Of a stretch of DNA of 64,000 bases, positions 48,203 through 63,396 are shown in pieces. The DNA lies in contig CANQHN010000008.1 of assembly GCA_947623745.1 (NCBI GenBank), positions 1,387 through 65,386 of the forward strand, given 5' to 3'. A program made the position numbers and the translations under genes. Position 1 is the first letter of the stretch. Each line of letters opens with the position of its first letter. A model generated the notes under the pieces. The model ran no database searches. It had not been told where the DNA came from and saw only the letters and a list, made by a program, of their open reading frames with translations. The DNA is from an uncultured Oscillospiraceae bacterium. GTDB lineage: Bacteria > Bacillota > Clostridia > Oscillospirales > Oscillospiraceae.

Positions 48203-48754
48203 ATGAAATATGTGTTTACGGACAAGAAAGTGAACCTGCCCAATTTCATCCACAACTACGCGGAGAAAAAGGTGGGCAAGCTGGACCGTTTCTTTAGGGA
48301 GGATGCCACCGCCGCAATTACGTTCAGCGTGGAGAAGGACCGGCTCAACAAGGTGGAGATCACCATCCGGTCCAGCGGCACCATCTACCGGGTGTCCGAG
48401 AGCACCTCCGATATGCGCGCCTCGATCGACGCGGCGGTCTCCACCCTGGAGCGCCAGATTCGCCGGAACAAGACCCGCCTGGAGAAGCGCCTGCGCCAGG
48501 GCGCTTTCGAGCGCAGCGTGGACGCGGCGGAGGTCTCCTCCTTCGCCCCCGAGGAGCCGGAGGAGGGCGAGTACCGCCTGGTGCGCAGCAAGAAGTTCCC
48601 CATCAAACCGATGACTCGGGAGGAGGCCATCCTCCAGATGAACCTGCTGGAGCACAGCTTCTTCGCTTTCAAGGACGAGGAGTCCGACGGGGCCTTCGCC
48701 GTGGTCTACCGCCGCAACGACGGCGGCTACGGTCTGATCGAGGACGAGACTTGA
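48203..48754 (+). CDS. hpf: Ribosome hibernation promoting factor (long HPF)
   Basis: YAEKKVGKLDRFF, DMRASID, KPMTREEAILQMNLLEH.FF. Confidence 0.93.
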   Translation: MKYVFTDKKVNLPNFIHNYAEKKVGKLDRFFREDATAAITFSVEKDRLNKVEITIRSSGTIYRVSESTSDMRASIDAAVSTLERQIRRNKTRLEKRLRQGAFERSVDAAEVSSFAPEEPEEGEYRLVRSKKFPIKPMTREEAILQMNLLEHSFFAFKDEESDGAFAVVYRRNDGGYGLIEDET

Positions 48755-48767
48755 GCATAAAATTAAG

Positions 48768-48800
48768 ACAGGGCGCCCGCACAGCGGGCGCCCTGTTTTT
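48768..48800 (+). terminator. Rho-independent terminator
   Basis: ACAGGGCGCCCGC-ACA-GCGGGCGCCCTGT plus T run. Confidence 0.85.
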
Positions 48801-48984
48801 GGATTTGGCAAAAAAATCGGAGCGGCGGAATGAATGAGCTCTGACTTTTAAAAAAAGTCGGAGCGAACGATATGTAGTCCGCTCCGACTTGTGTTCCGTG
48901 GTCAGGTTGGAGAACGCATTTTGCTATATTCTGCCACTAAGTTGACTATGACACGGAAGCACCAATTTTGCGATTTTCTGATGT

Positions 48985-49051
48985 TTCAGTGGAACAGCCT
49001 GCCTGTTGAGAGTTTGCTAAATTTGCACGGATAATTTGAAAATGGGTGCAG
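48985..49051. repeat. 67-bp att-like direct repeat R1
   Basis: 53/67 ungapped identity by hand count to 50973-51039. Confidence 0.75.
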
Positions 49052-49064
49052 GACTCCATCTGTA

Positions 49065-49190
49065 TTAAATCTTCACGGTGATTACCTCGCCATTTGTAAG
49101 ATGAAACTCTGTTTGTCGGTTTTTTGTGGATGATCACTTCCTCCACCGGTTCATACCACAAAGCGTTAATCCGAGAAGTGGTGTGGGCCA
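49065..49190 (-). pseudogene. Remnant 3' end of a serine recombinase gene
   Basis: With one frameshift in an A6 run it reads ALWYEPVEEVIIHK/NRQTEFHLTNGEVITVKI*, resembling RWRETVESVTVYQDQRMVFHFKDGTEAEVHL* of the 52502 recombinase. Confidence 0.5.
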
Positions 49191-49192
49191 TT

Positions 49193-50689
49193 TTATTCAC
49201 GCGCTACGCAGCGAAGCTGATGGCCGTGCGAGCTTCCACTCCATTCATCGGGTATCGCTCTTCTTGTTCCACGTCCGAGTTCTATATCCAATGCGTTTGC
49301 TCCATAGCCATATGAATTCCAGTAAAATCCATAGTTCGCCCATGTCCACGCTCCATCTATTATTACAGCATTAGTATTAAATTGCGGCATGTTATTACTT
49401 CTATCCTCCACAAGTTGCGAAAAATCGTTGCTGTATGCTTCGGCAAGAGCAGTAAATTCTCCGTTTATAGGCAAGCTCCACCCTTTTGGACAGACGGATT
49501 CTTCAGCCGCGCCTTGCTCCGTAAGTTTCTCACTGCTTCCTGCAGTGGCAGCATTCCATGAATAATAAGCATTTCCTTCTTCGGAAATATAGAAATATGG
49601 GTCATGCCACGACGAGTGAAAAGTAAATGCACTTTGAGGTATTTCGAAGGCACAATCCTTAACATCTGAGTCAATTGGCGTCAATTTTCGATCGGTCAAT
49701 TTTTCATCGCCAAATCGCAGGTCTTGTGTCATCCAGCATTTGCCATCTTTCAGTTTTGCCACCGAATAAGTATTGCCGTCTCTCGCATCAACTAGGGTTG
49801 TGAAGCCACCATCCGACAATGAGCTACATTGGAAAGTTTGCATCCATCGTTGACTCCCCTCTGGCTTCCATACGCCGAGCAGTGTAGCTTCATTCTCTCC
49901 GTCGGCCAAAGGATACCCAGTCCCGGCTTTGTAGACAATATTATCTGCGCAAGCGCCGGTCTCAGCATTTTTCTTGCACCATCCTTGAAAAACATAGTTT
50001 GGTTTTTTCTGATTGGTGTTTAGTAACGTTACAGTAGGCTCAGTAGTTGTGCCTTGAGAAGTGTTATCTGTTGTACCACAGTTGCACCCGTCATATGAAA
50101 TGTTATAGTTTACTGTATTTGCTGTGGCAGTTATCGTAAAGGTATTAGAATAATTACCCGCGGGTTGGTTTGTATTCACTTTAGCACCAATAGTAAAGCT
50201 GTAATCATGATTACCACTTGCATTAGTCGTATCTAGCGTTTCCTTCGTTGTGGGTCCAGGTTGAAAATTATTATTGCTTATATTAGCATTATCTTTACCG
50301 AACTTGTAGCCCCAGGCATTATCTGGGAAGTTTGTTTTACTTTTCGCCTCAGTGATAGACGCTATAGTATTGCCTTCTTTGGAGGTTAATACGTTCTTAC
50401 TATTCTTAGACTGAATACTTAAGACATATCCCCAATGTGCATCGCCTTTTACGGATACTTTACCGCTAGCCTCAGAGAACCCACCGGACGCAGAAGCATT
50501 AACTGTGAGTGGATTGGTGGGGATTTCTATGGTGAGCGAGGCGGCGGAGACAGTCTGCGCCCCAAGCGCAGATAATGCAGCCATGACCACCACCCCCACT
50601 AAGCCCCATTTCTGTGCCAACGGGAGAAGTATTGAGCCGCTGGCACAGAGATGACGCTTAGTTTTGATACATTTGGGGATGATTTTCAT
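49193..50689 (-). CDS. Surface protein: N-terminal TM/signal, beta-rich domain, InlB B-repeat-like segment, FISUMP (Fib_succ_major-like) C-terminal domain
   Basis: LVDARDGNTYSVAKLKDGKCWMTQDLR, YYSWNAATAG, SVCPKGWSLP, LRCVA; NYVFQGW. Confidence 0.78.
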   Translation of the reverse strand: MKIIPKCIKTKRHLCASGSILLPLAQKWGLVGVVVMAALSALGAQTVSAASLTIEIPTNPLTVNASASGGFSEASGKVSVKGDAHWGYVLSIQSKNSKNVLTSKEGNTIASITEAKSKTNFPDNAWGYKFGKDNANISNNNFQPGPTTKETLDTTNASGNHDYSFTIGAKVNTNQPAGNYSNTFTITATANTVNYNISYDGCNCGTTDNTSQGTTTEPTVTLLNTNQKKPNYVFQGWCKKNAETGACADNIVYKAGTGYPLADGENEATLLGVWKPEGSQRWMQTFQCSSLSDGGFTTLVDARDGNTYSVAKLKDGKCWMTQDLRFGDEKLTDRKLTPIDSDVKDCAFEIPQSAFTFHSSWHDPYFYISEEGNAYYSWNAATAGSSEKLTEQGAAEESVCPKGWSLPINGEFTALAEAYSNDFSQLVEDRSNNMPQFNTNAVIIDGAWTWANYGFYWNSYGYGANALDIELGRGTRRAIPDEWSGSSHGHQLRCVARE

Positions 50690-50773
50690 GACCTACCTCG
50701 CTTAATATTGTTTGACGCAGGTCATTTCTGTTACTTTTTGCGCTGGTGGGGCTTTCGCCCCATTCACTATAAC

Positions 50774-50927
50774 AAAAATGGCACCGCAAGGGTGCATTAC
50801 TATATTATCTATCGATCAACTCGCCCAAAGGCATGCCGTAAATAGACAACCAGTACCTTGTGGTGCCATTTTTATTTATTTACGGCTATAAATGTGCTGA
50901 TCGTTAATATAAATAATATAGTAATGC
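50774..50927 (-). ncRNA. Candidate structured 5' leader RNA
   Basis: Three interleaved inverted repeats (19+8, 10, 18 bp); begins about 7 nt after TG-n-TATAAT (50934-50942). Confidence 0.5.
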
Positions 50928-50972
50928 TCTTTCATTATAGCACACATTTTTATTTGTGCGAAAAAAACGGCC

Positions 50973-51039
50973 TTCAGTGAGGCGGTCTGGCCGTTGAAGA
51001 TTTGCTAAATTTACATGGATAATTTGAAAATAGGTGTAG
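50973..51039. repeat. 67-bp att-like direct repeat R2
   Basis: TTTGCTAAATTT and GGATAATTTGAAAAT shared with R1. Confidence 0.75.
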
Positions 51040-51096
51040 TTTATACTGCTTCAATGAATGCTGAAACTAAGATCGCTGCGGTATTTTGCTGCATAG

Positions 51097-51128
51097 GAAA
51101 CTCCCCCGGAGAGAGTTGGGGGAGTTTC
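51097..51128 (-). terminator. Terminator-like hairpin after the cell-wall-anchored gene
   Basis: GAAACTCCCCC...GGGGGAGTTTC. Confidence 0.65.
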
Positions 51129-51171
51129 ACAATTTAACCTTTCTAACTCAGAGAGCTAGAAGCTCAGAGAG

Positions 51172-52287
51172 TTAGCGGTTGGATTTCTTGGCTACGAAAG
51201 CGGTAGCACCAAGGCCGAGCAGAGCTACGGTAGCAATTGTCAGGTAAGTGGCAATCGTATCAGCAGTGTTCGGGTTCTCAGCGTCGTCATCGGTTGGGTC
51301 TTCTGGCTCGTCGGTCGGGTCAACAACAGCATCGTCAATGGTGTTGTAGGCAGTCAAAGCCGCCAAATTAGCTTCGGTCGAAGTCTTGCCGTCAACAGAC
51401 CATTCAGCAAAGGTTACTTTGCCATTGTTGTTGTAAACATGCTTATCTTCGCCTTCGGTGGACAAATCAACGTTAGCGAGAACGAAGCTCTTCAGAGCAC
51501 CATACTTCTTTGCATCGTCTTTATTTTTTGGCGAGAGACCAAACACGGCTTTGTAGTCGAGAGGAGCGGTCACTTCTTTACCATCAACAGCGATAGTGTT
51601 ATTCTCTTCACTTGCAAGCGTGCTCTTAGAGACGTTCACGGTAATAGCATTGGCGGGAGCATCAGCAGACTCAATCAACAGAGCATTGCCAGTGCCGGCG
51701 TTAAGGGTAGCGCCTTTAGCAATAAAATCACCACCGGAAACCTTCACAGCATAGCCATCAGTGTCAATGAGACCGTTAACGGTAGTCTTACCGGCGCTCA
51801 TCCAAATACCATTGGCACCATTGATTTCACCATTAACCGTCACTTCGCCGTTGCTGTTGATTGCAAGTGCTTTGCCGCTATCAACAGTAACATTCTCACC
51901 GATAGTAACCGTTGCTTCGTCGCCAACAACCTTAATCGCATCGCCAGTTACATTAGCAAACGACACAAGAGCTTCACTATCGGAAACAATAGTAAGTTTA
52001 CCGTTGATAATCAACGAATGACCTTTGAATTTCAGTTCACCGCCGTTGAGGTCAAGGGTAACATCCTTATTGATGGTTACATCGCCAGAGGCGAATGTAT
52101 CATCATTCTCATTAAAATCGTCGGTAAGCTTGCAGGTCTTTGTTTCTTCTGTTGTCTGAAGACAACCGCGAAGTGTCTGGACTGCATCGTATTGCGTAGC
52201 TGCTTGTTCTTCTGGCGCAGCGAACACGCTTGGTACTATAGCCATACCAGCAATGAATGCCGCTACGGGAATAATAGATTTCTTCAT
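51172..52287 (-). CDS. Secreted beta-helix-like protein with LPXTG-like anchor (NPNTAD)
   Basis: Signal peptide ending VFA; acidic DPTDEPED linker; NPNTAD, TM helix, KKSNR tail. Confidence 0.78.
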   Translation of the reverse strand: MKKSIIPVAAFIAGMAIVPSVFAAPEEQAATQYDAVQTLRGCLQTTEETKTCKLTDDFNENDDTFASGDVTINKDVTLDLNGGELKFKGHSLIINGKLTIVSDSEALVSFANVTGDAIKVVGDEATVTIGENVTVDSGKALAINSNGEVTVNGEINGANGIWMSAGKTTVNGLIDTDGYAVKVSGGDFIAKGATLNAGTGNALLIESADAPANAITVNVSKSTLASEENNTIAVDGKEVTAPLDYKAVFGLSPKNKDDAKKYGALKSFVLANVDLSTEGEDKHVYNNNGKVTFAEWSVDGKTSTEANLAALTAYNTIDDAVVDPTDEPEDPTDDDAENPNTADTIATYLTIATVALLGLGATAFVAKKSNR

Positions 52288-52326
52288 TCATTCTCCTTCA
52301 TGAAGATTATTTGATATTACACATTA

Positions 52327-52379
52327 ATTTTATCAAATTGATATATTATTGTCAATAGCTTTTTGTGCATATTGCACAA
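52327..52379 (-). promoter_or_regulatory. Sigma-70 promoter with upstream palindrome
   Basis: TTGACA-17-TAAAAT (52355-52327); TTGTGCA-N3-TGCACAA at 52363-52379. Confidence 0.65.
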
Positions 52380-52501
52380 TTTTGTCTGCGTTAGGGATTG
52401 TCATATTGGAATAGGGCTTTGCGGTACTTACATTGTGAAAAAGCGCCGCAAAATTGCGACGCTTTGAAAATAAAGTACAGAATGTGCTGGCTCAAATGGT
52501 G

Positions 52502-53782
52502 CTACAGATGAACCTCTGCCTCTGTACCATCTTTGAAGTGAAATACCATCCGCTGGTCTTGGTATACCGTAACGGACTCCACCGTTTCCCGCCAACGCTG
52601 GTCACTGTAGGAACAGTCGGAATCACCGATTATCTTGCGGGCAGCTTCAAATGCGGCCTGTATCTCATGCTCACGCAGAATCGGCGTGGCGCATTTATCG
52701 GTTTTTCCATACCTGTGGTTACAGTACCATACGGTATAGCGATCTGTGTTCCCCCGGTTGTGCCAGACCTTGCTGCCATAGAAGCTTCCGCAGTCTCCGC
52801 AGACGAGTTTTGCGCTAAAGGGATAATCATCCCGGAGCCGCGCAGCATATGGCTTGCGTAAGGCGATCATCTCCTGTACACGCTCGAAAGTTTCCGGGTC
52901 GATGATCGGTTCGTGAGAATTGCGCACGATATACTGTTTCATTTCCCCCCGGTTTTTCCGAACCTTCTTCGAGAGGTAGTCTACCGTATAGGTCTTCTGG
53001 AGGATAGCCTCTCCCTTATATTTCTCATTGGTGAGAATGTTCTCCACGGTAGAGGTGGGCCAAATTGTCCGCCCTTTGGGTGTAGGGATACCGCGCACCG
53101 TCAGAGACTTTGCGATGTGGCGGACCGTCATGCCTGAAAGGAACATATCGTAAATCTCACGCACAATTTTCGCTTCTTCCTCTACGATTTCCGGTCTGCC
53201 ATCCGGCCCTTTCCTGTAGCCGAGGAAAGCAGAGTAAGCAATGTGGACTTTGCCATCCTTCATGCTTTTTTGCTGTCCCCAGCGGACGTTTTCGCTGATA
53301 GAGCGGCTTTCCTCCTGCGCCAATGAGCTCATGATGGTAAGCATCACCTCGCATTTGGGATCGAAGGTGCGGAGGTTTTCTTTCTCGAAAATCACCTCCA
53401 CGCCTGCCTCCTTTAGCTGGCGGACAGTTGAGAGCGTGTCCACCGTGTTCCGGGCAAACCGGGAAATGGATTTTGTCAGGATCAGATCGATCCCGCCACT
53501 TAAGGCAAGGTTGATCATCTGATTGAATCCATCACGGTTTTTGGTATTGGTACCAGTGATCCCGGCATCGGAAAACACGCCAATGAACTCCCAGAGAGGA
53601 TTGCCCTTAATGTACTCGGTGTAATATTGCACTTGCGCTTCATAGCTGTTTTGTTGCTCATCCTGCTCGGTAGAGACACGGGCGTAAGCCGCTACGCGAA
53701 GCCTTTGCGTGACAGGGGAATCAGACCGCTCAACAATCTGTTTGATCGGCTCAATTTCCTCTACTTCTGGCGTATAATTCAC
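52502..53782 (-). CDS. Large serine recombinase 1
   Basis: VAAYARVST, TKSISRFARN, Zn ribbon CGDCGS; GTG start at 53782 in GTGA overlap with AAGGAG RBS. Confidence 0.92.
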   Translation of the reverse strand: MNYTPEVEEIEPIKQIVERSDSPVTQRLRVAAYARVSTEQDEQQNSYEAQVQYYTEYIKGNPLWEFIGVFSDAGITGTNTKNRDGFNQMINLALSGGIDLILTKSISRFARNTVDTLSTVRQLKEAGVEVIFEKENLRTFDPKCEVMLTIMSSLAQEESRSISENVRWGQQKSMKDGKVHIAYSAFLGYRKGPDGRPEIVEEEAKIVREIYDMFLSGMTVRHIAKSLTVRGIPTPKGRTIWPTSTVENILTNEKYKGEAILQKTYTVDYLSKKVRKNRGEMKQYIVRNSHEPIIDPETFERVQEMIALRKPYAARLRDDYPFSAKLVCGDCGSFYGSKVWHNRGNTDRYTVWYCNHRYGKTDKCATPILREHEIQAAFEAARKIIGDSDCSYSDQRWRETVESVTVYQDQRMVFHFKDGTEAEVHL

Positions 53783-55095
53783 TTTAACTCCTTCCGGTGT
53801 TGTTCCAGTGCCTTTTCCCGTGCGGCCTGCCGCATCTCCGGGGTCCAGCTTTCCCGCCTTGAATGGTGTTGCCATATAACGTCAACCTCCTTTCCGTTTT
53901 TTAGATAGTAGACAAGATGATAATGCTCTGGAACTACGATTTTCCAAATACTGGCTTCTACGGTTTCCCAATCCAGATGTTCTGTACCAAGGGTTTCCGC
54001 CGTTTTTTCGATCAGAATCTTCTCGGGGATATTCTGTGCAGGGCATACCTGTTTACCCAGCTTGTTATAACTGGGGCAAACCCATATGTTCCTTTTGCCG
54101 TTCTGTCCACTTGTTTTGCAACGCTGATAGATCCGTCCGCAAAGGCCGCAATGAATCAGCCCCCGAAACAGAGACTGTCCCACCTCATTATTCTGCGTGG
54201 GCTTGTAGTATTGTGATTGGCGTCTTTTCATCTCATTTTGTACTGCATCGAACACCTCCTGTTCAATAATCGGCTCGTGGCTATGCCAAACACGGTACAT
54301 TTTCACCTCCCCATGATTTTCTTTTGTCTTTTTGGTGCGAAAATCTGTACGATAGGTTTTTTGGAGGATCATGTTGCCGGTATAGTCTTCGTTGGTCAGA
54401 ATATGTCGAACCGACGAGATATTCCAAGGCCTTCCCAATTGCGTGGGAACTCCGCGCAACGACAGTTCTTTGGCAATGTGGGTCAATCCGTGACCAGAAA
54501 GGTACTCTGCATAAATCCAGCGTACAATTTCTGCTTCCTCCGGTATAACAGATAATCTGCCATTTTCCAGGTGGTATCCTAACATCCGTCCCACCCACGG
54601 TTCACCTTTCTTGAACTTCTTCTGTATCCGCCATTTCTGGTTTTCACTGGCGGATCTGGCTTCTTCCTCTGCATACATGGCGAGAAGCGTAAGGAGAAGC
54701 TCACCATCCGGGCTGATAGAGTGCATCTGCTCTTTCTCAAAGTAGCAGTCGATGCCGAGGTCTTTCAGTTCCCGAATCGTTTGCAGTAGGATGACCGTAT
54801 TCCGGGCAAACCGGGTGACGGACTTCGTGATCACGAGGTCGATTTTCCCGGCGCGGCAATCTACCAGCATCCGTTGGAACTCCGGACGGTTGATGATCGT
54901 GCCGGAGATCCCGTTGTCTGAATAGATGTTTACCAGTTGCCAATCAGGATGCTTTGCGACATACTTTTCATAATAGTCTATTTGGGCTTCCAGTGAATGA
55001 AAGGCCGCATCCTTATCTGCCGAGACGCGGGCATAAGCCGCGACACGGGTGATCTTACGTTCCTTTGATTTTGCAGGTATCTCAGTGATTTCCAT
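53779..55095 (-). CDS. Large serine recombinase 2
   Basis: VAAYARVS, TKSVTRFARN, IHCGLCG. Confidence 0.92.
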   Translation of the reverse strand: MEITEIPAKSKERKITRVAAYARVSADKDAAFHSLEAQIDYYEKYVAKHPDWQLVNIYSDNGISGTIINRPEFQRMLVDCRAGKIDLVITKSVTRFARNTVILLQTIRELKDLGIDCYFEKEQMHSISPDGELLLTLLAMYAEEEARSASENQKWRIQKKFKKGEPWVGRMLGYHLENGRLSVIPEEAEIVRWIYAEYLSGHGLTHIAKELSLRGVPTQLGRPWNISSVRHILTNEDYTGNMILQKTYRTDFRTKKTKENHGEVKMYRVWHSHEPIIEQEVFDAVQNEMKRRQSQYYKPTQNNEVGQSLFRGLIHCGLCGRIYQRCKTSGQNGKRNIWVCPSYNKLGKQVCPAQNIPEKILIEKTAETLGTEHLDWETVEASIWKIVVPEHYHLVYYLKNGKEVDVIWQHHSRRESWTPEMRQAAREKALEQHRKELK

Positions 55096-55142: not shown

Positions 55143-55439
55143 TCAACGATGTTTTTCGATGACTCTTCGGTTGTTTTTCCACCACTCTATTCGGCATTCA
55201 TCCGAACAAAACTGGCGGATTCTGCAATCTGTATCCGGTAGGATACGGTGACAATTTCTGCAAAGCTGAACGCTATGTTTCTCAGCTTTGGTTTTGCGCT
55301 TGCCAGAAGCAGGGAATCCCTTTCTCCGGCAAACCGATTTTACGGTGTTGGACGGCAAACCCAGCGCCCGCCCAATAAAGCTGTACGGATAGTTGAGAGC
55401 CCGCAGCTCTGCGATCCGCTCTAGTTGCTGTGCCGTCAT
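55143..55439 (-). CDS. Small HTH plus Zn-ribbon protein upstream of the recombinases
   Basis: IGRALGLPSNTVKSVCRR, CRNC...FCSDECR. Confidence 0.7.
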   Translation of the reverse strand: MTAQQLERIAELRALNYPYSFIGRALGLPSNTVKSVCRRKGFPASGKRKTKAEKHSVQLCRNCHRILPDTDCRIRQFCSDECRIEWWKNNRRVIEKHR

Positions 55440-60183: not shown

Positions 60184-61236
60184 CTAGCAAAGCTCCTTTG
60201 CGTCAATATATTGCCGGAGCATTTTCTCTATCTGGTCCGGGGTGATCACAAGGAACATCTTGGGGTGGCCTTTGGTATGTTCCGAGATGTACTCCTTTAG
60301 CCGCTGCTTCCGGGCCTCATCTGTAGTGATCCAGACCACCAGCGGAAACATCTGCGTTTCCCGCTGCTCAATCTCGGTGTAGAAGTAACGGAGATAGGCA
60401 TCGCACTTTTCAACCACATCTGCCGGTGATTCGGTGCCGAGATCCATTTCAATGAACCAGCGGTCCTCATAGTTGTCATAGTTGGTGATAACAAAGAGGT
60501 CCGGTTTGAGGTAGCAGAGATGCCCGTCCGCATCCCGGTAGCACCGCCAGCAGGAAGGCTCGGAGTCCACTTGTTCAAGGTCGATGTCGTAGCTGTTGCG
60601 TGAGATGCAAGTCATCTGTATCGCGCATTCCGCTACCGCAAGGGTGTGGTTTAAGAACATGGCAGATGGCTCTTTGGTGCGCTTGCGCGGACCGGCGTCT
60701 GGATCGTTTAGTGTCAGCAGACGGTACCCGGCCTCGGTGAGATGCCAGACCTGCAGGGACGATCCACCGCCTTCGCCGCCGACTCGCCGCTCCAAGGGCC
60801 GGATCAATCCGTAATCGGAGAGCCGCTTCAAGAGCAGGTTCCGGTGGCGGGTCTGAGATGTCTTGGTACTGCAGTTCGTCACATAGAGCGTCCCGATCTG
60901 CGCCGAGGTGAGAAAACGGTACTTGCGGATGGCCTGCAGGACAGCATGGTCGCGGGCGGTAAGGTGGGCCTCGATCTGCTCAAGCTGCGCCCTAGTCAGA
61001 CGGGTATTTTTATAGTGGATGCCCCGCGCCGCTTTGGGTGAAGCTATCCCCGTCAAGGGGATAGAGCCAGCTCCCTTAGTGGCCGAAGCCGCGCCGGGTT
61101 CCGCCGCTTCCTGGCTTTCAAAGTCCTGGCGGTTGGATGGGCGATGGGATGGGTCATTTTCAGGGGTGGCGGCTTGCTTTTCGCTGTCATTATGGTATTT
61201 GTTCTCTGGTTTTTCAGAGTCATAGGATGGGGTCAT
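60184..61236 (-). CDS. Replication-relaxation (Replic_Relax) family relaxase
   Basis: RKYRFLTSAQI, FLNHTLAVAE, LKPDL, WFIEMDLGTES. Confidence 0.8.
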   Translation of the reverse strand: MTPSYDSEKPENKYHNDSEKQAATPENDPSHRPSNRQDFESQEAAEPGAASATKGAGSIPLTGIASPKAARGIHYKNTRLTRAQLEQIEAHLTARDHAVLQAIRKYRFLTSAQIGTLYVTNCSTKTSQTRHRNLLLKRLSDYGLIRPLERRVGGEGGGSSLQVWHLTEAGYRLLTLNDPDAGPRKRTKEPSAMFLNHTLAVAECAIQMTCISRNSYDIDLEQVDSEPSCWRCYRDADGHLCYLKPDLFVITNYDNYEDRWFIEMDLGTESPADVVEKCDAYLRYFYTEIEQRETQMFPLVVWITTDEARKQRLKEYISEHTKGHPKMFLVITPDQIEKMLRQYIDAKELC

Positions 61237-61251: not shown

Positions 61252-63396
61252 TTAACTTTTCTTCTTTCGCCCGATAGGGGCATCATTTATGAGTGAGTCC
61301 GGTGGCGGGGTGGGCGGCATCATCAGTTGGATGAGCGACTGCTCTGTCTTAGCTGCTGGGACTCCGTACCGTTTCATACTCTCGGCCTTGAGCTCCGCTG
61401 CCATGCGAACAAGTTCCGGAGGTGGCAGGGTTCTGGCGCTGATCCAGCCCGTAGCACTGCCATCAGACTGAAAAGCGGTGTAGATTTCGTAGCGGGGCAG
61501 CGTCATGAAGTCCAGCGGTTCCAGTTCCTGTGCTTGGGCCGCCAACGCCTTGGCGTCGTCGCTGTTCAGACCGAAGATGATCTTATTCCGGCAGTTGGCG
61601 TCCACCCCGGCCAGAATATCCGGTGGGAGCTGCCCCCGGTACTGGTGGGCCACAGTATAGGCAACACCCAGCCCTCTGGCCTGTGACAGAGCGTCACTAA
61701 ACGAAGTGGGCAAGGCAAGGTAGTCTTGTAGTTCGTCGATAAAGATGGACACCATGTGTCGTTTCTCCGGTGCGATTTTTGCTCTGGATAGGGCAAGGCT
61801 CCAAGTGAGGCTAACAATGAGGCTCCCTAAGAGCCGTGCGCTCTCTGCGCCGATCATCCCCCGGTTGAGCGGTACCAGCACGATCCGGCGTTTGAGAAAG
61901 AGGTCGGTGAGGGAAAACTTCGGCTCAGACTGCCCAAGGATGCTTCTAAGACCGGGGCGGAAAGTGATCTGCCGGAGCTTGTTGAGGACCGGCGCGATCT
62001 CGGTGCGGCGCTCACTGTCTCGCATCGTCTCGAAGTTTCTCCAAAACGGCTCCAGCGCGATGGGGTCCTTTACCTGTGCGGTGATCTTCTTGCGGAAACT
62101 CTCATCGGTGAGCAGAAACGGTAGCCAGAGCAGGTTCGCCCCCTTGATTTGGGCAAGGGTCAACAGCGCCCCGGACAAAATGTCCGCACTGCGGATGCCC
62201 CAGTTCTGAGAAAACAGTTCCTGAAACACCGCCAGCACCGCATCCGCTGTAAGGGCCGGGTCTTGGTGATAGGCCAGCGGGTTAAATCCCACCGGACAGG
62301 GGTCCGAAGGGTCCAGCACGACCACATCGTCTTTGCGGCTGTCTGGAATGCGCTCCAAAATGTCTGTGACAAGATCGGCCTTGGGATCAATCACCAGAAC
62401 GCTGCGCCCGGCTCGGATGTCTGCAAGGATCAGATGGAGCATGGCAGTGCTTTTACCGGCCCCGGTAGGCCCTAAGAACACCGTGTGCTCCAGAGCATCC
62501 TTGGGGGCAATGCTGAGTGGCTTTTGGGCACTGTCTAAGGCTGTGGCGAAGGTACGCTTTGCGGCACTCGCTTTTGGCTCCCGGTACCACTTCGGCGGCA
62601 GGAGCAGCTTGGGGTGTAGCCCTGGCGTTCCCGGCAGTTCTTCCTCCCCGGCGGGGAGAAGCATAAAACAGGCGGTCTCCTTAACAGACAGGCGGTTCGG
62701 CATCCGCCACGGCAGAGCGGCCAGATCCAAATGGCTCGGCAGGTCCCGCTCCGCATGAATATGTACACCCGCGCTCTCCAAAGTTCGGAGCGCAGAGATG
62801 ATATTGTTGATCCGGGTTTCCAAATGGCCTCCCGAAACACCTACCCGGACGACGGCATCGAAGCGGTACTGGCTGGCCTTATCCCGTGCGGACTTCTGCT
62901 GATCTGCTGTGGCGTTATATACATTTCCGAAAACCGCTCTAAACCATGAAGCAGTGGGGTCCGGCATATTCTTGGGGATACTGCTGGGGGCGTAGGCCGC
63001 CCCCAGCGTCACCTGTACTACGGTTTCTGTATCCGCCCCCGCACCGGTCATGGCGGCGAGAGCGGCCCGGACGGTAGCCGCCGCCACGTCCGTATTAAGT
63101 TGTAAAATTGGCTTTGAGATTTTGAGTTTTCTCGCCACCGATACTTTCTCACGGGGGACACCCTCAACAAACTGCACACTGGTATGGGCCCGCAGGACTT
63201 CCTGCACCCGGCTGACGCTTTTCTTGGGCGTCCCAATGAGATACCGCATCTGCCCATTGCGGCAGCGGGCCTCCCAAACGATCTCCCCGCGGGAAGTCAA
63301 AGCAGCGATGTGGGTGAGGACCGCTTGGATCGTCTCCATCTCATAGGGGCGCTGGATCAACACCTCGCGCCAGACCAGTGTGTTAGTAGTCGTCAT
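61252..63396 (-). CDS. VirD4/TraD-like type IV coupling ATPase
   Basis: HTVFLGPTGAGKS, VIDPKAD, IFIDELQ, ARGLGVAYTVAHQ. Confidence 0.82.
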   Translation of the reverse strand: MTTTNTLVWREVLIQRPYEMETIQAVLTHIAALTSRGEIVWEARCRNGQMRYLIGTPKKSVSRVQEVLRAHTSVQFVEGVPREKVSVARKLKISKPILQLNTDVAAATVRAALAAMTGAGADTETVVQVTLGAAYAPSSIPKNMPDPTASWFRAVFGNVYNATADQQKSARDKASQYRFDAVVRVGVSGGHLETRINNIISALRTLESAGVHIHAERDLPSHLDLAALPWRMPNRLSVKETACFMLLPAGEEELPGTPGLHPKLLLPPKWYREPKASAAKRTFATALDSAQKPLSIAPKDALEHTVFLGPTGAGKSTAMLHLILADIRAGRSVLVIDPKADLVTDILERIPDSRKDDVVVLDPSDPCPVGFNPLAYHQDPALTADAVLAVFQELFSQNWGIRSADILSGALLTLAQIKGANLLWLPFLLTDESFRKKITAQVKDPIALEPFWRNFETMRDSERRTEIAPVLNKLRQITFRPGLRSILGQSEPKFSLTDLFLKRRIVLVPLNRGMIGAESARLLGSLIVSLTWSLALSRAKIAPEKRHMVSIFIDELQDYLALPTSFSDALSQARGLGVAYTVAHQYRGQLPPDILAGVDANCRNKIIFGLNSDDAKALAAQAQELEPLDFMTLPRYEIYTAFQSDGSATGWISARTLPPPELVRMAAELKAESMKRYGVPAAKTEQSLIQLMMPPTPPPDSLINDAPIGRKKKS

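Follow-up and report, generated by a model that had tools for sequence, protein, structure and literature searches.

The 67-nt direct repeats R1 and R2 lie within an integrative element of the large serine recombinase (LSR) type, ~32 kb long, in which R is a subterminal module with its native place between an LSR stop codon and the attachment (att) arm. Our favored reading, which we hold with moderate confidence, is that the two are diverged copies of this module, and that the part of the window (the whole 64,000-nt stretch of DNA analysed) in which they lie is a cargo hotspot built by accretion and replacement of element ends together with recombination between R copies.

The repeat search returned R1 (48985-49051) and R2 (50973-51039) as its top direct-repeat family: 67 nt, 79% identical (53/67), ungapped and spaced 1988 nt apart, just as the first-pass annotation had described them. 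A search by pattern across all 3.05 Mb of the genome found these two copies only (reversed control, 0). In the ungapped register the homology is restricted to ~48975-49051, with flanks at background (~25-27%); when an indel is allowed, the alignment shows weak similarity for another ~35 nt on the att-distal side. The module would have a core of ~67 nt, or ~110 nt counting its weakly similar tail. The 14 mismatches are distributed 2/7/5 by codon phase, so there is no third-position bias, which agrees with the earlier claim that the repeat is not a coding duplication. The better-conserved part of R1 is its att-distal 39 nt (49012-49050; minus strand TGCACCCATTTTCAAATTATCCGTGCAAATTTAGCAAAC). R1 also contains CACGGATAATT, an 11-mer that occurs three times in the 32-kb element versus 0.015 expected, each time near an end. 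As RNA, R folds no better than shuffles, forms no significant hairpin and makes a weak terminator. The third site that the first-pass annotation had placed behind the intact recombinase does exist as the short core TTTGAAAATA at 52463-52472, 30 nt past the LSR1 stop, but the R profile failed to detect the surrounding region (nhmmer, E up to 10), leaving a third R copy unsupported.

What lies between R1 and R2 is the gene for a FISUMP-domain protein with its promoter and leader, as had been proposed, but not these exactly, since an LSR relic is also enclosed. This relic (49065-49191, minus strand), recognized by translation and sister comparison, comprises the last ~41 codons of an LSR gene, begins directly past the FISUMP stop codon and reads (M)AHTTSRINALWYEPVEEVIIHKK / NRQTEFHLTNGEVITVKI*, with a frameshift within an A-run. 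The same 41 codons are in frame in sister elements, and in that form they match intact LSR C-termini (L098, 48%, E 2e-4; L129, 45%, E 1e-5; LSR1 of L100, 43%), which confirms the reported recombinase remnant just before R1. In L051, L096, L097, L100 and L132, as in the window, R1 has the relic upstream of it; here the relic is 3.3 kb from the intact LSR pair, and no intact parent was found among the compared elements. The FISUMP protein itself (P0003, 49193-50689, minus strand) is a secreted surface protein that scores above the cut-off for TIGR02145, and divergent sequence takes the place of its C-terminal half in sister elements. Its promoter and ~240-nt structured leader (50690-50962, minus strand), identified by consensus scan and paralogue leaders, include TTCGCA-17-TGcTATAAT at 50962-50934; a comparable leader precedes the paralogues P0005 and C8 70330-72147.

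On the other side of R2, the 3′ trailer of P0004 (51040-51171, minus strand) forms a strong hairpin (GAAACTCCCCC...GGGGGAGTTTC); alignment shows that it is kept in all P0004-type genes and stops at the joint with R. P0004 (51172-52287, minus strand) is a hypervariable surface protein of a family with 30-37% identity and conserved ends. It has a signal peptide and an NPNTAD motif, which looks like a sorting signal, followed by a hydrophobic stretch and then KKSNR. By consensus scan its promoter is TTGACA-17-TAAAAT (52355-52327); strong, separate promoters precede both P0003 and P0004, with matches at 10-11 of 12 consensus positions and a TG extension. Beyond P0004 are two intact, overlapping LSR genes on the minus strand, LSR1 (P0001, 52502-53875) and LSR2 (P0002, 53779-55095), both with the Pfam domains Resolvase, Recombinase and Zn_ribbon_recom; their best NCBIfam matches are CcrB and CcrC, far under the family cut-offs. 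Domain searches also found a relaxase (Replic_Relax, 60184-61236) and a TraD/VirD4-like type IV coupling protein ATPase (61252-63396), both on the minus strand. With LSR genes at one end, a relaxase and a coupling protein, the island fits an LSR-type integrative element that is mobilisable or conjugative; no VirB4-like ATPase was found among its larger ORFs, and the remainder consists of defence-type and surface-protein genes.

The first-pass annotation had read R1 and R2 as stacked attachment sites, an idea that we reject because the true att site was found independently, by way of the unoccupied site in congeners and the five further flanks of sister elements, and its boundary is not at R. 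The element separates the CCA end of tRNA-Leu(GAG) from the trailing terminator of the same tRNA. In the congeners G803, G800 and G058 the empty site is intact, with the trailer hairpin joined straight to the tRNA-Leu CCA end, and reads GCTCCGAC(G/T)-TG-GTGCGGCTGACGGG; attL reads ...CCGACT-TG-TGTTCC and attR ...GCAAGG-TG-GTGCGG. The only stretch common to all three is TG (CA on the minus strand), the probable crossover dinucleotide, which falls at 48890-48891 in the left junction. It is exactly there that the window and the sister elements part ways: they match up to ...GGAACACA, beyond which the sisters have five other flanks. The adjoining P′ arm (48892-48915, TGTTCCGTGGTCAGGTTGGAGAAC) is 100% conserved in six sister elements, and its outer 19 nt (48897-48915) are a perfect inverted repeat of C8 82267-82285, the arm that abuts tRNA-Leu(GAG) at the opposite end of the element. 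The predicted attP is a 50-bp dyad, GTTCTCCAACCTGACCACGGAACA-CA-CCTTGCGTGGTCAGGTTGGAGAAC, with a symmetry of 18/20 that 0 of 300 shuffles matched (p < 0.004). The element's att thus resembles attP/attB of the phiC31/Bxb1 type (PMC4111918) in its length of ~50 bp, near-perfect dyad and crossover at a central dinucleotide, whereas R1 and R2 do not fit that pattern: their best dyads reach 10/20 (p 0.91) and 11/20 (p 0.59) against shuffles, R gives no significant local alignment with attP or attL, and it shares with attR just an 8-mer in the flank (p ~0.03-0.04).

The last host gene before the element is hpf (48203-48754, plus strand; Pfam Ribosomal_S30AE and S30AE_C), which encodes a ribosome hibernation factor and has a terminator at 48765-48799; GC content goes from ~65% to ~45% beyond 48800. 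The B′ side of attB is a tRNA-trailer terminator repeat of the host (48819-48889, minus strand) with no tRNA and no Rfam match, consisting of a hairpin and T-run on the minus strand (terminator scan, 48890-48855). It belongs to a multi-copy family found directly 3′ of tRNA CCA ends, with copies on C22, C7, C2, C27 and C34 and in relatives; those on C7 and C2 abut tRNA 3′ ends. R1 starts ~94-95 nt from the crossover, inside the element, and R2 is ~2.1 kb inside; between R1 and the arm is a conserved subterminal spacer, d (48916-48984), delimited in the six-element alignment. The first-pass annotation had asked whether the repeat sits at element ends and whether the enclosed genes vary: R1 lies ~94 nt short of the boundary, and the enclosed genes do vary. 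The repeats are tied to the 3′ ends of recombinase genes and to a mobile-element end and are no generic host motif.

The comparison elements are all metagenome-assembled, chiefly from one series of samples, and assemblers can be misled by repeats; those that vary in cargo are from rabbit-gut assemblies. Among the sister elements, both the number and the identity of the genes between recombinase and element end differ: some have a single R and lack the FISUMP unit, some have two R copies and some have additional genes. R2 is present in L051, L096, L097, L102, L104 and L132 and absent from L100, L101 and L105. L101 has a P0004-like gene, the trailer, one R and the arm, in an identical arrangement on four contigs; L105 has an additional 189-aa gene and one R; in L102 and L104 a 187-aa gene is followed by R2 and then by the FISUMP gene; and L100 lacks both P0004 and R2. 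Four different upstream sequences meet R at a single nucleotide, C|TGCACC: the P0004 trailer, the 187/189-aa cassette and the L132 region form derived joints, and the LSR relic the ancestral one. That three derived joints coincide with the ancestral nucleotide is not predicted by random rearrangement and counts against the accretion view. The same upstream cassette can be joined to an R1-type or an R2-type body (L105 vs L102; L101 vs the window).

The block running R2 - FISUMP - relic - R1 - arm is flanked differently in the window and in L051, lies beside an L129-type arm in L132 and, without R2, is found at a further flank in L100; this composite block moves as one unit. L132 also contains a P′-CA-P junction linking the arm of this element to an L129-type arm, which shows that the ends of both element types can become adjacent. 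In L098 and L129, FISUMP-LSR-LSR is followed by R-like units (ATCCGTGCAAA...GGTGCA) and then by the arm and a tRNA. Mean pairwise identity among six elements is 100% for the arm, 92.5% for d, 90% for the proximal part of R, 85% for the LSR relic and 80% for the distal part of R.

Stacked or decayed element ends provide a plausible history for these arrangements. R belongs to an integrative element of the LSR type, ~32 kb long and mobilisable or conjugative, and the native position of the module would be behind the stop codon of the terminal recombinase gene, ahead of the att arm. The order FISUMP gene - LSR - LSR - R-like units - arm, intact in relatives, would have decayed here to FISUMP - LSR relic - R1 - arm and been fused behind an end of the form LSR1 - P0004 - R, so that the cargo hotspot, from LSR1 to the arm, would have been put together from the ends of related elements. 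R1 would still hold its original position, 13 nt past the 41-codon relic and 69 nt ahead of the arm, and R2 would be a second copy, internalised, which may now act as a weak terminator that closes P0004 and abuts the FISUMP promoter. Against this history, neither an att arm nor an arm relic was detected beside R2, so an internalised element end must have lost its arm; the failure to find an intact parent of the relic recombinase, the poor folding of R and the origin of the comparisons in metagenome assemblies also weigh against it. Recombination between R copies would then remove the 1988-bp unit and leave single-R elements, most easily when the first 39 nt of both copies are identical, as they are in L132. 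At present R may serve as a protein-binding or insulating part of an extended element end, with R2 as a terminator in addition.

A rather unlikely alternative is that R is itself a site-specific recombination site for the capture and loss of gene units, with crossover at its recombinase-proximal edge, C|TGCACC. We give the same low weight to catalysis there by LSR1, LSR2 or another element-encoded enzyme, which would amount to a cassette system resembling an integron but driven by a serine recombinase. The joining of four unrelated upstream sequences at one nucleotide would be expected of such a site, as would the presence or absence in close relatives of a 1988-bp unit between direct R copies and the finding of one cassette on both types of R body; moreover, with two LSR genes, one could have a second specificity. 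However, R has neither the dyad symmetry of the element's att site nor a significant hairpin, and no circle or deletion joint for R1 x R2 was found among the assembled contigs of the genome. In L102 and L105, the 187/189-aa gene and P0004 have one R in common, so cassettes are not each closed by an R, and ordinary recombination within an identical 39-nt stretch like that of L132 can account for the single-R elements.

It is just as improbable, in our estimate, that R is first of all a working cis element of the element end, with recombination there incidental and the second copy a duplicated regulatory module. It might bind a regulator, directionality factor or recombinase, act as an antisense promoter, or be a terminator that shields att from read-through. 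The motifs CACGGATAATT and GGTGCA/TGCACC cluster in the last 150-300 bp at both element ends and are repeated four to five times ahead of the arm in L098 and L129; a palindrome, GGTGCA-C-TGCACC, lies at the opposite end of the element; both R1 and R2 keep a promoter-like TTGAGA-18-GATAAT on the plus strand, and on the minus strand R2 terminates in a 6-bp stem and U-run immediately ahead of the P0003 promoter. Yet both motifs are mutated in the R2 of the window lineage (CACGG to CATGG, GGTGCA to GGTGTA), and the promoter and terminator matches are those of consensus scans. Spacer d and the proximal 39 nt of R show higher conservation than the adjoining pseudogene, but the excess is small (90% vs 85%) and comes from six sequences.

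Less probable again is the idea that the R units are fossil att junctions, each made of a former arm and the final bases of a tRNA, internalised by aberrant excision or by integration beside a resident element and no longer used; we would give either route little credence. One subterminal unit of L129 agrees with the arm-tRNA junction of the same element in 16 of 17 positions (CGTGCAAATA(G)TGGTGC; 0/1000 shuffles), and the subterminal units repeatedly contain TGGTGC, to which the target tRNA ends are the reverse complement. The edge of R in most copies, CTGCACCA, resembles a tRNA 3′ end, but this likeness was spotted post hoc, R1 and R2 bear weak or no similarity to attR or attL (p 0.03-0.98), and serine recombinases do not duplicate their target sequence. 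Finally, a chance match is refuted by the ungapped 53/67 identity and by the conservation of both copies at orthologous positions in five or more sister elements.

It is typically tyrosine integrases that insert elements at a tRNA CCA end. Elements with serine recombinases usually integrate within genes (PMC5704250). Among known systems, the CIME-ICE/IME composites of streptococci arise by tandem accretion with decayed relatives (PMC5704250, citing Pavlovic 2004 and Bellanger 2011). The window likewise has a unit without a recombination gene of its own (the 41-codon LSR relic behind FISUMP) beside a functional element. Both composites occupy a tRNA gene's 3′ end, travel to new sites as a whole, bear a relic recombinase gene and vary in gene content among relatives; however, CIME-ICE/IME composites depend on tyrosine integrases rather than LSRs and keep an internal att with a copy of the tRNA end, whereas here R2 is not an att and there is no internal arm. 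Staphylococcal SCC composite islands, whose Ccr proteins are LSRs, similarly stack serine-recombinase elements at one chromosomal site, with units lacking recombinase genes between direct repeats, but those repeats are the att core and hold integration-site sequence, whereas R1 and R2 are unrelated to the att site of this element. The variable-region hotspots of ICEs such as SXT/R391 (cf. PMC5812530) also combine a conserved backbone with cargo of varied number and kind at a defined intergenic place, which here extends from the recombinase gene to the att arm. Unlike them, our hotspot is bounded by a duplicated 67-nt module, its joints recur at one nucleotide and its cargo is mostly hypervariable surface proteins with their own promoters.

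The first-pass annotation had pictured an integron-style array, and on the side of variation, in the presence and number of units, that picture holds up: as with integron cassettes, gene units lie near a recombinase gene, a conserved short site is on their 3′ side and joints fall at the site's edge. The architecture differs. Integrons use attC and the tyrosine integrase IntI, and here the recombinase is a serine enzyme and R has no hairpin-forming palindrome; integron cassettes are promoterless and share a promoter beside the integrase, whereas each gene here has its own, and not every gene has an R. If capture at R nevertheless proved true, promoter-bearing units would be inserted and removed at C|TGCACC beside the att site, swapping hypervariable surface proteins, and the element would offer a functional parallel to integrons that is built on different enzymes and sites.

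The direct-repeat search of the region returned as its top hit the repeat pair proposed in the first-pass annotation: R1 (48985-49051) and R2 (50973-51039) are 67 nt long, identical at 53 of 67 positions without gaps, and 1988 bp apart. The similarity is limited, in ungapped register, to approximately 48975-49051, with flanks at background, and a degenerate 31-mer from the conserved core has only these two sites in the 3.05-Mb genome. Mismatches fall 2/7/5 by codon phase, in keeping with the earlier statement that third positions are not favored. The frameshifted recombinase C-terminus described before R1 is also present: on the minus strand, the stretch from the FISUMP stop to R1 reads ...TSRINALWYEPVEEVIIHKK / NRQTEFHLTNGEVITVKI*, with the frameshift within an A-run. 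In sister elements these 41 codons stay in frame and align with the C-terminal ends of intact large serine recombinases (LSRs), with 45-48% identity to those of loci L098 and L129 and 43% to LSR1 of locus L100; no intact parent of this relic turned up, either in the genome or at the fetched loci. The R1-R2 interval does enclose the gene for the FISUMP surface protein P0003 (49193-50689), but not that gene alone: the recombinase relic lies inside as well. The TTTGAAAATA sequence after LSR1 (52463-52472), suggested as a further copy, was undetected as an R homologue by the R profile. The R repeat is real and biologically meaningful.

The repeats lie in an island whose GC content drops from ~65% to ~45% just past hpf (48203-48754) and stays low until ~80900 (window position). 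It carries overlapping LSR genes (52502-53875 and 53779-55095), a relaxase, a coupling protein, a methylase, a STAND NTPase, an Abi protein, a type III restriction-modification pair and three paralogous FISUMP-type surface-protein genes. Small ORFs, such as 55143-55439, neighbor the two recombinase genes. Because no VirB4-like ATPase was seen among the larger ORFs of the 32-kb island, the element may be mobilisable rather than self-transmissible. A perfect 19-nt inverted repeat, CGTGGTCAGGTTGGAGAAC, occurs at 48897-48915 and at 82267-82285 of contig C8, the latter copy 6 nt from the 3′ end of tRNA-Leu(GAG). The joined flanks of the element read ...GCTCCGACT-TG-GTGCGGCTGACGGG..., which is found uninterrupted and exact in the congeners G803, G800 and G058, and in other assemblies the sister elements align collinearly with the window as far as ...CCACGGAACACA, where five differing flanks take over; we therefore place the crossover at the TG at 48890-48891. 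The inferred attP (diagnostic sequence ...CCACGGAACACACCTTGCGTGG...; attB, ...CTCCGACTTGGTGCGGC...) is a 50-bp near-perfect dyad (18/20, a score that 0 of 300 shuffles matched), as is classical for serine-integrase sites. The genome's own contigs contain no excision or empty-site joints, and annotated plasmids gave just short matches inside the recombinase genes.

One half of the target site is supplied by a ~73-nt repeat left of the element (48819-48891), which belongs to a multi-copy host family with a terminator hairpin. Further copies lie at C22:6402-6474, C7:27837-27923, C2:148873-148946 and C27:33451-33527 on other contigs of the genome, and in this genome and its relatives several tRNA genes have the repeat immediately after their CCA end (77-95% identity). 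The family is absent from Rfam; a tRNA identity for the 73-nt sequence was rejected (ARAGORN found none) in favor of a tRNA-trailing terminator repeat. The element sits at a tRNA CCA end with the tRNA gene undamaged (48890-48915; C8 82267-82293). Such ends are a niche mostly of tyrosine integrases. The usual insertion of serine-recombinase elements is within genes (PMC5704250). The recombinase genes are at the tRNA-side end in L098 and L129, and at the opposite end in the window element.

The sister elements are all known from metagenome assemblies, most of them belonging to a single series of rabbit-gut samples; carriers are represented by the samples behind ERZ27249651, ERZ27249032, ERZ27249097, ERR10663779/81 and ERR11510979. 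They were reached through homologues of P0003 and of the surface protein P0004, and their LSR region is 85-97% identical to that of the window. Searches of 800 reference genomes (family and order), JGI metagenomes and IMG/VR yielded no relatives. BLAST of R1 against 401 genomes of the family gave chance matches only, and R1 together with its spacer d (48916-48984) and the P′ att arm (48892-48915) matched only the window's own genome among 401 of the order. The R pattern had no match in JGI metagenomes or IMG/VR, nor the R profile in 44 loci whose LSR1 homologues are more distant. The 19-nt arm had 21 matches in JGI metagenomes, all in coding sequence of no relation to the element; many fall in a single conserved gene with the stretch ...NKFSNLTTGKVY..., which resembles CTP synthase. 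The identity of the arm, GTTCTCCAACCTGACCACG, with this coding stretch (loci L108, L112, L114, L117, L118, L124 and L127) is probably coincidence.

Locus comparison confirmed the cargo variation envisaged earlier: gene orders differ among the sister elements, and therefore so do the number and identity of the genes between LSR1 and the arm. L051, L096 and L097 keep the order of the window, but divergent sequence stands in place of the central part of P0004 and of the C-terminal half of the FISUMP protein. L101 (four contigs, same arrangement) reads LSR1, P0004-like gene, trailer, one R and arm, without FISUMP gene or relic, and L105 has an additional 189-aa gene between the trailer and its one R. 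In L102 and L104 the trailer is followed by a 187-aa gene, an R2-type copy and then the FISUMP promoter. L100 is without P0004 and R2 and has a 116-aa gene plus a 1.55-kb unit that shares 98% identity with a stretch found at another place in the window element, and L132 has two R copies with another upstream sequence again. The R2-to-R1 interval is a present-or-absent unit.

Several features of this cargo can be described separately. P0004 (51172-52287; homologues P0073-P0094) represents a hypervariable family of ~390-420 aa, always beside this recombinase pair, which keeps a signal peptide and a C-terminal NPNTAD-type anchor around a middle of just 30-37% identity. The ~240-nt FISUMP leader (50690-50930, minus strand) contains inverted repeats that interleave (50771-91/50856-76 and 50794-812/50909-27), as well as a stem resembling a terminator; FISUMP paralogues have a similar leader. 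The Logan contigs L036 and L037 both stop inside it, at ~50898; an invertible segment could explain this, as could strain variation or a problem of assembly. The 116-aa gene of L100 (4637-5163) directly follows LSR1 between 26-bp inverted repeats (AATAGGGGCTTGCGGTATGTAAGCG and its complement; one copy in the window, 52409-52438); a small insertion and an invertible segment are both conceivable. The 1.55-kb stretch (C8 72313-73858, outside the window, equivalent to L038 7314-8859; L100 5217-6762) encodes a 453-aa ORF without a Pfam match and has GGTAACA(T/C)TATT motifs repeated at one end. As the near-identical L100 copy is differently placed, the stretch probably represents a small mobile unit. 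L102 and L103 have a 447-aa HTH protein at a similar position. Homologues of LSR1 (54-60% identity; L053, L054, L092) and distant FISUMP homologues (P0064, P0072) occur in genomes labelled Candidatus Saccharibacteria, which hints at exchange with, or mis-binning of, those genomes; the low cargo GC fits.

We read R1 and R2 as copies of a subterminal module in a cargo hotspot. An R1-type copy lies 69 nt from the att arm in 6/6 sister elements. In the more distant relatives L098 and L129, a restriction-modification gene comes first, then the FISUMP gene, two LSR genes, 4-5 units ATCCGTGCAAA...GGTGCA, a hairpin, the arm and a tRNA, and the R1 core, CACGGATAATTTGAAAATGGGTGCA, is one unit of this type; the FISUMP-relic-R1-arm order of the window therefore looks like a decayed form of an end architecture still intact elsewhere. 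The 11-mer CACGGATAATT has 3 copies in the 32-kb element (0.015 expected), all <300 bp from an end. A palindrome, GGTGCA-C-TGCACC, lies at the other end of the element, and R1 and R2 both contain a promoter-like site on the plus strand. Among six elements, conservation weakens away from the arm, from 100% in the arm itself to 92.5% in d, 90% in the proximal 39 nt of R, 85% in the pseudogene and 80% in distal R, a gradient that hints at some constraint on d and proximal R.

The recombinase-proximal end would grow as the ends of related elements are stacked and trimmed. In L132 (2944-3180), the element's P′ arm is joined via the core CA to an inverted L129-type arm, with the L129-type hairpin and R-like units next; R-like units lie on both sides, and gene fragments (AAA_15 ATPase and helicase-like) flank the block. 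The junction is either an excised-form attP or two element ends in tandem, and either way both end types meet. Integration beside a decayed relative, then co-mobilisation, is a model for tyrosine-integrase elements (PMC5704250); our case resembles it in its recombinase relic and co-moving block, but differs in having no internal att site beside R2. One subterminal unit of L129 matches its own arm-tRNA junction at 16/17 positions (equalled by 0 of 1000 shuffles), and R-type units may for this reason be fossils or mimics of att junctions. In R1 and R2 themselves, resemblance to attR or attL was weak or absent.

Four unrelated upstream sequences (the LSR relic, the P0004 trailer, the 187/189-aa cassette and the L132 region) meet R at one point, C|TGCACC. 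The relic context is probably ancestral, since its flank TACAGA.GG is common to L129. The L132 R copies are identical over their first 39 nt and divergent beyond, and ordinary recombination in a stretch of this kind would give exactly the single-R elements; because L101 and L105 share derived R changes (AAAATCYGC), one loss event may be enough for both. The meeting of four unrelated sequences with R at one nucleotide is the sole feature that ordinary rearrangement leaves unexplained; random rearrangement does not account for the three derived joints there, and for that reason site-specific exchange at this joint keeps a share of the odds.

The first-pass annotation was right in outline about stacked units beside serine recombinases; its mechanism, with R1 and R2 as attachment sites, was wrong as far as testable. 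R1 starts 94 nt inside the element boundary, neither repeat has dyad symmetry above chance, similarity to attP and attL is not significant, and the sole match to attR is an 8-mer in its flank; no R1 x R2 joints occur among the genome's own contigs. R marks the inner structure of the element's cargo end, not its attachment sites. Next to R2, the stretch in register with the arm of R1 showed background identity, so an att-arm relic there was rejected. A structured RNA was rejected, with no Rfam match and folding z-scores (-1.1 to +0.8) no better than shuffles.

The element is a documented serine-recombinase case targeting a tRNA CCA end. If the shared joint does reflect site-specific exchange, it would be a new route to cassette-like gene shuffling. 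If, as we favor, R1 and R2 are subterminal module copies, this would be a clear case of a serine-recombinase element end growing by the stacking and trimming of related ends, with variable surface proteins carried between gut Clostridia of different species.
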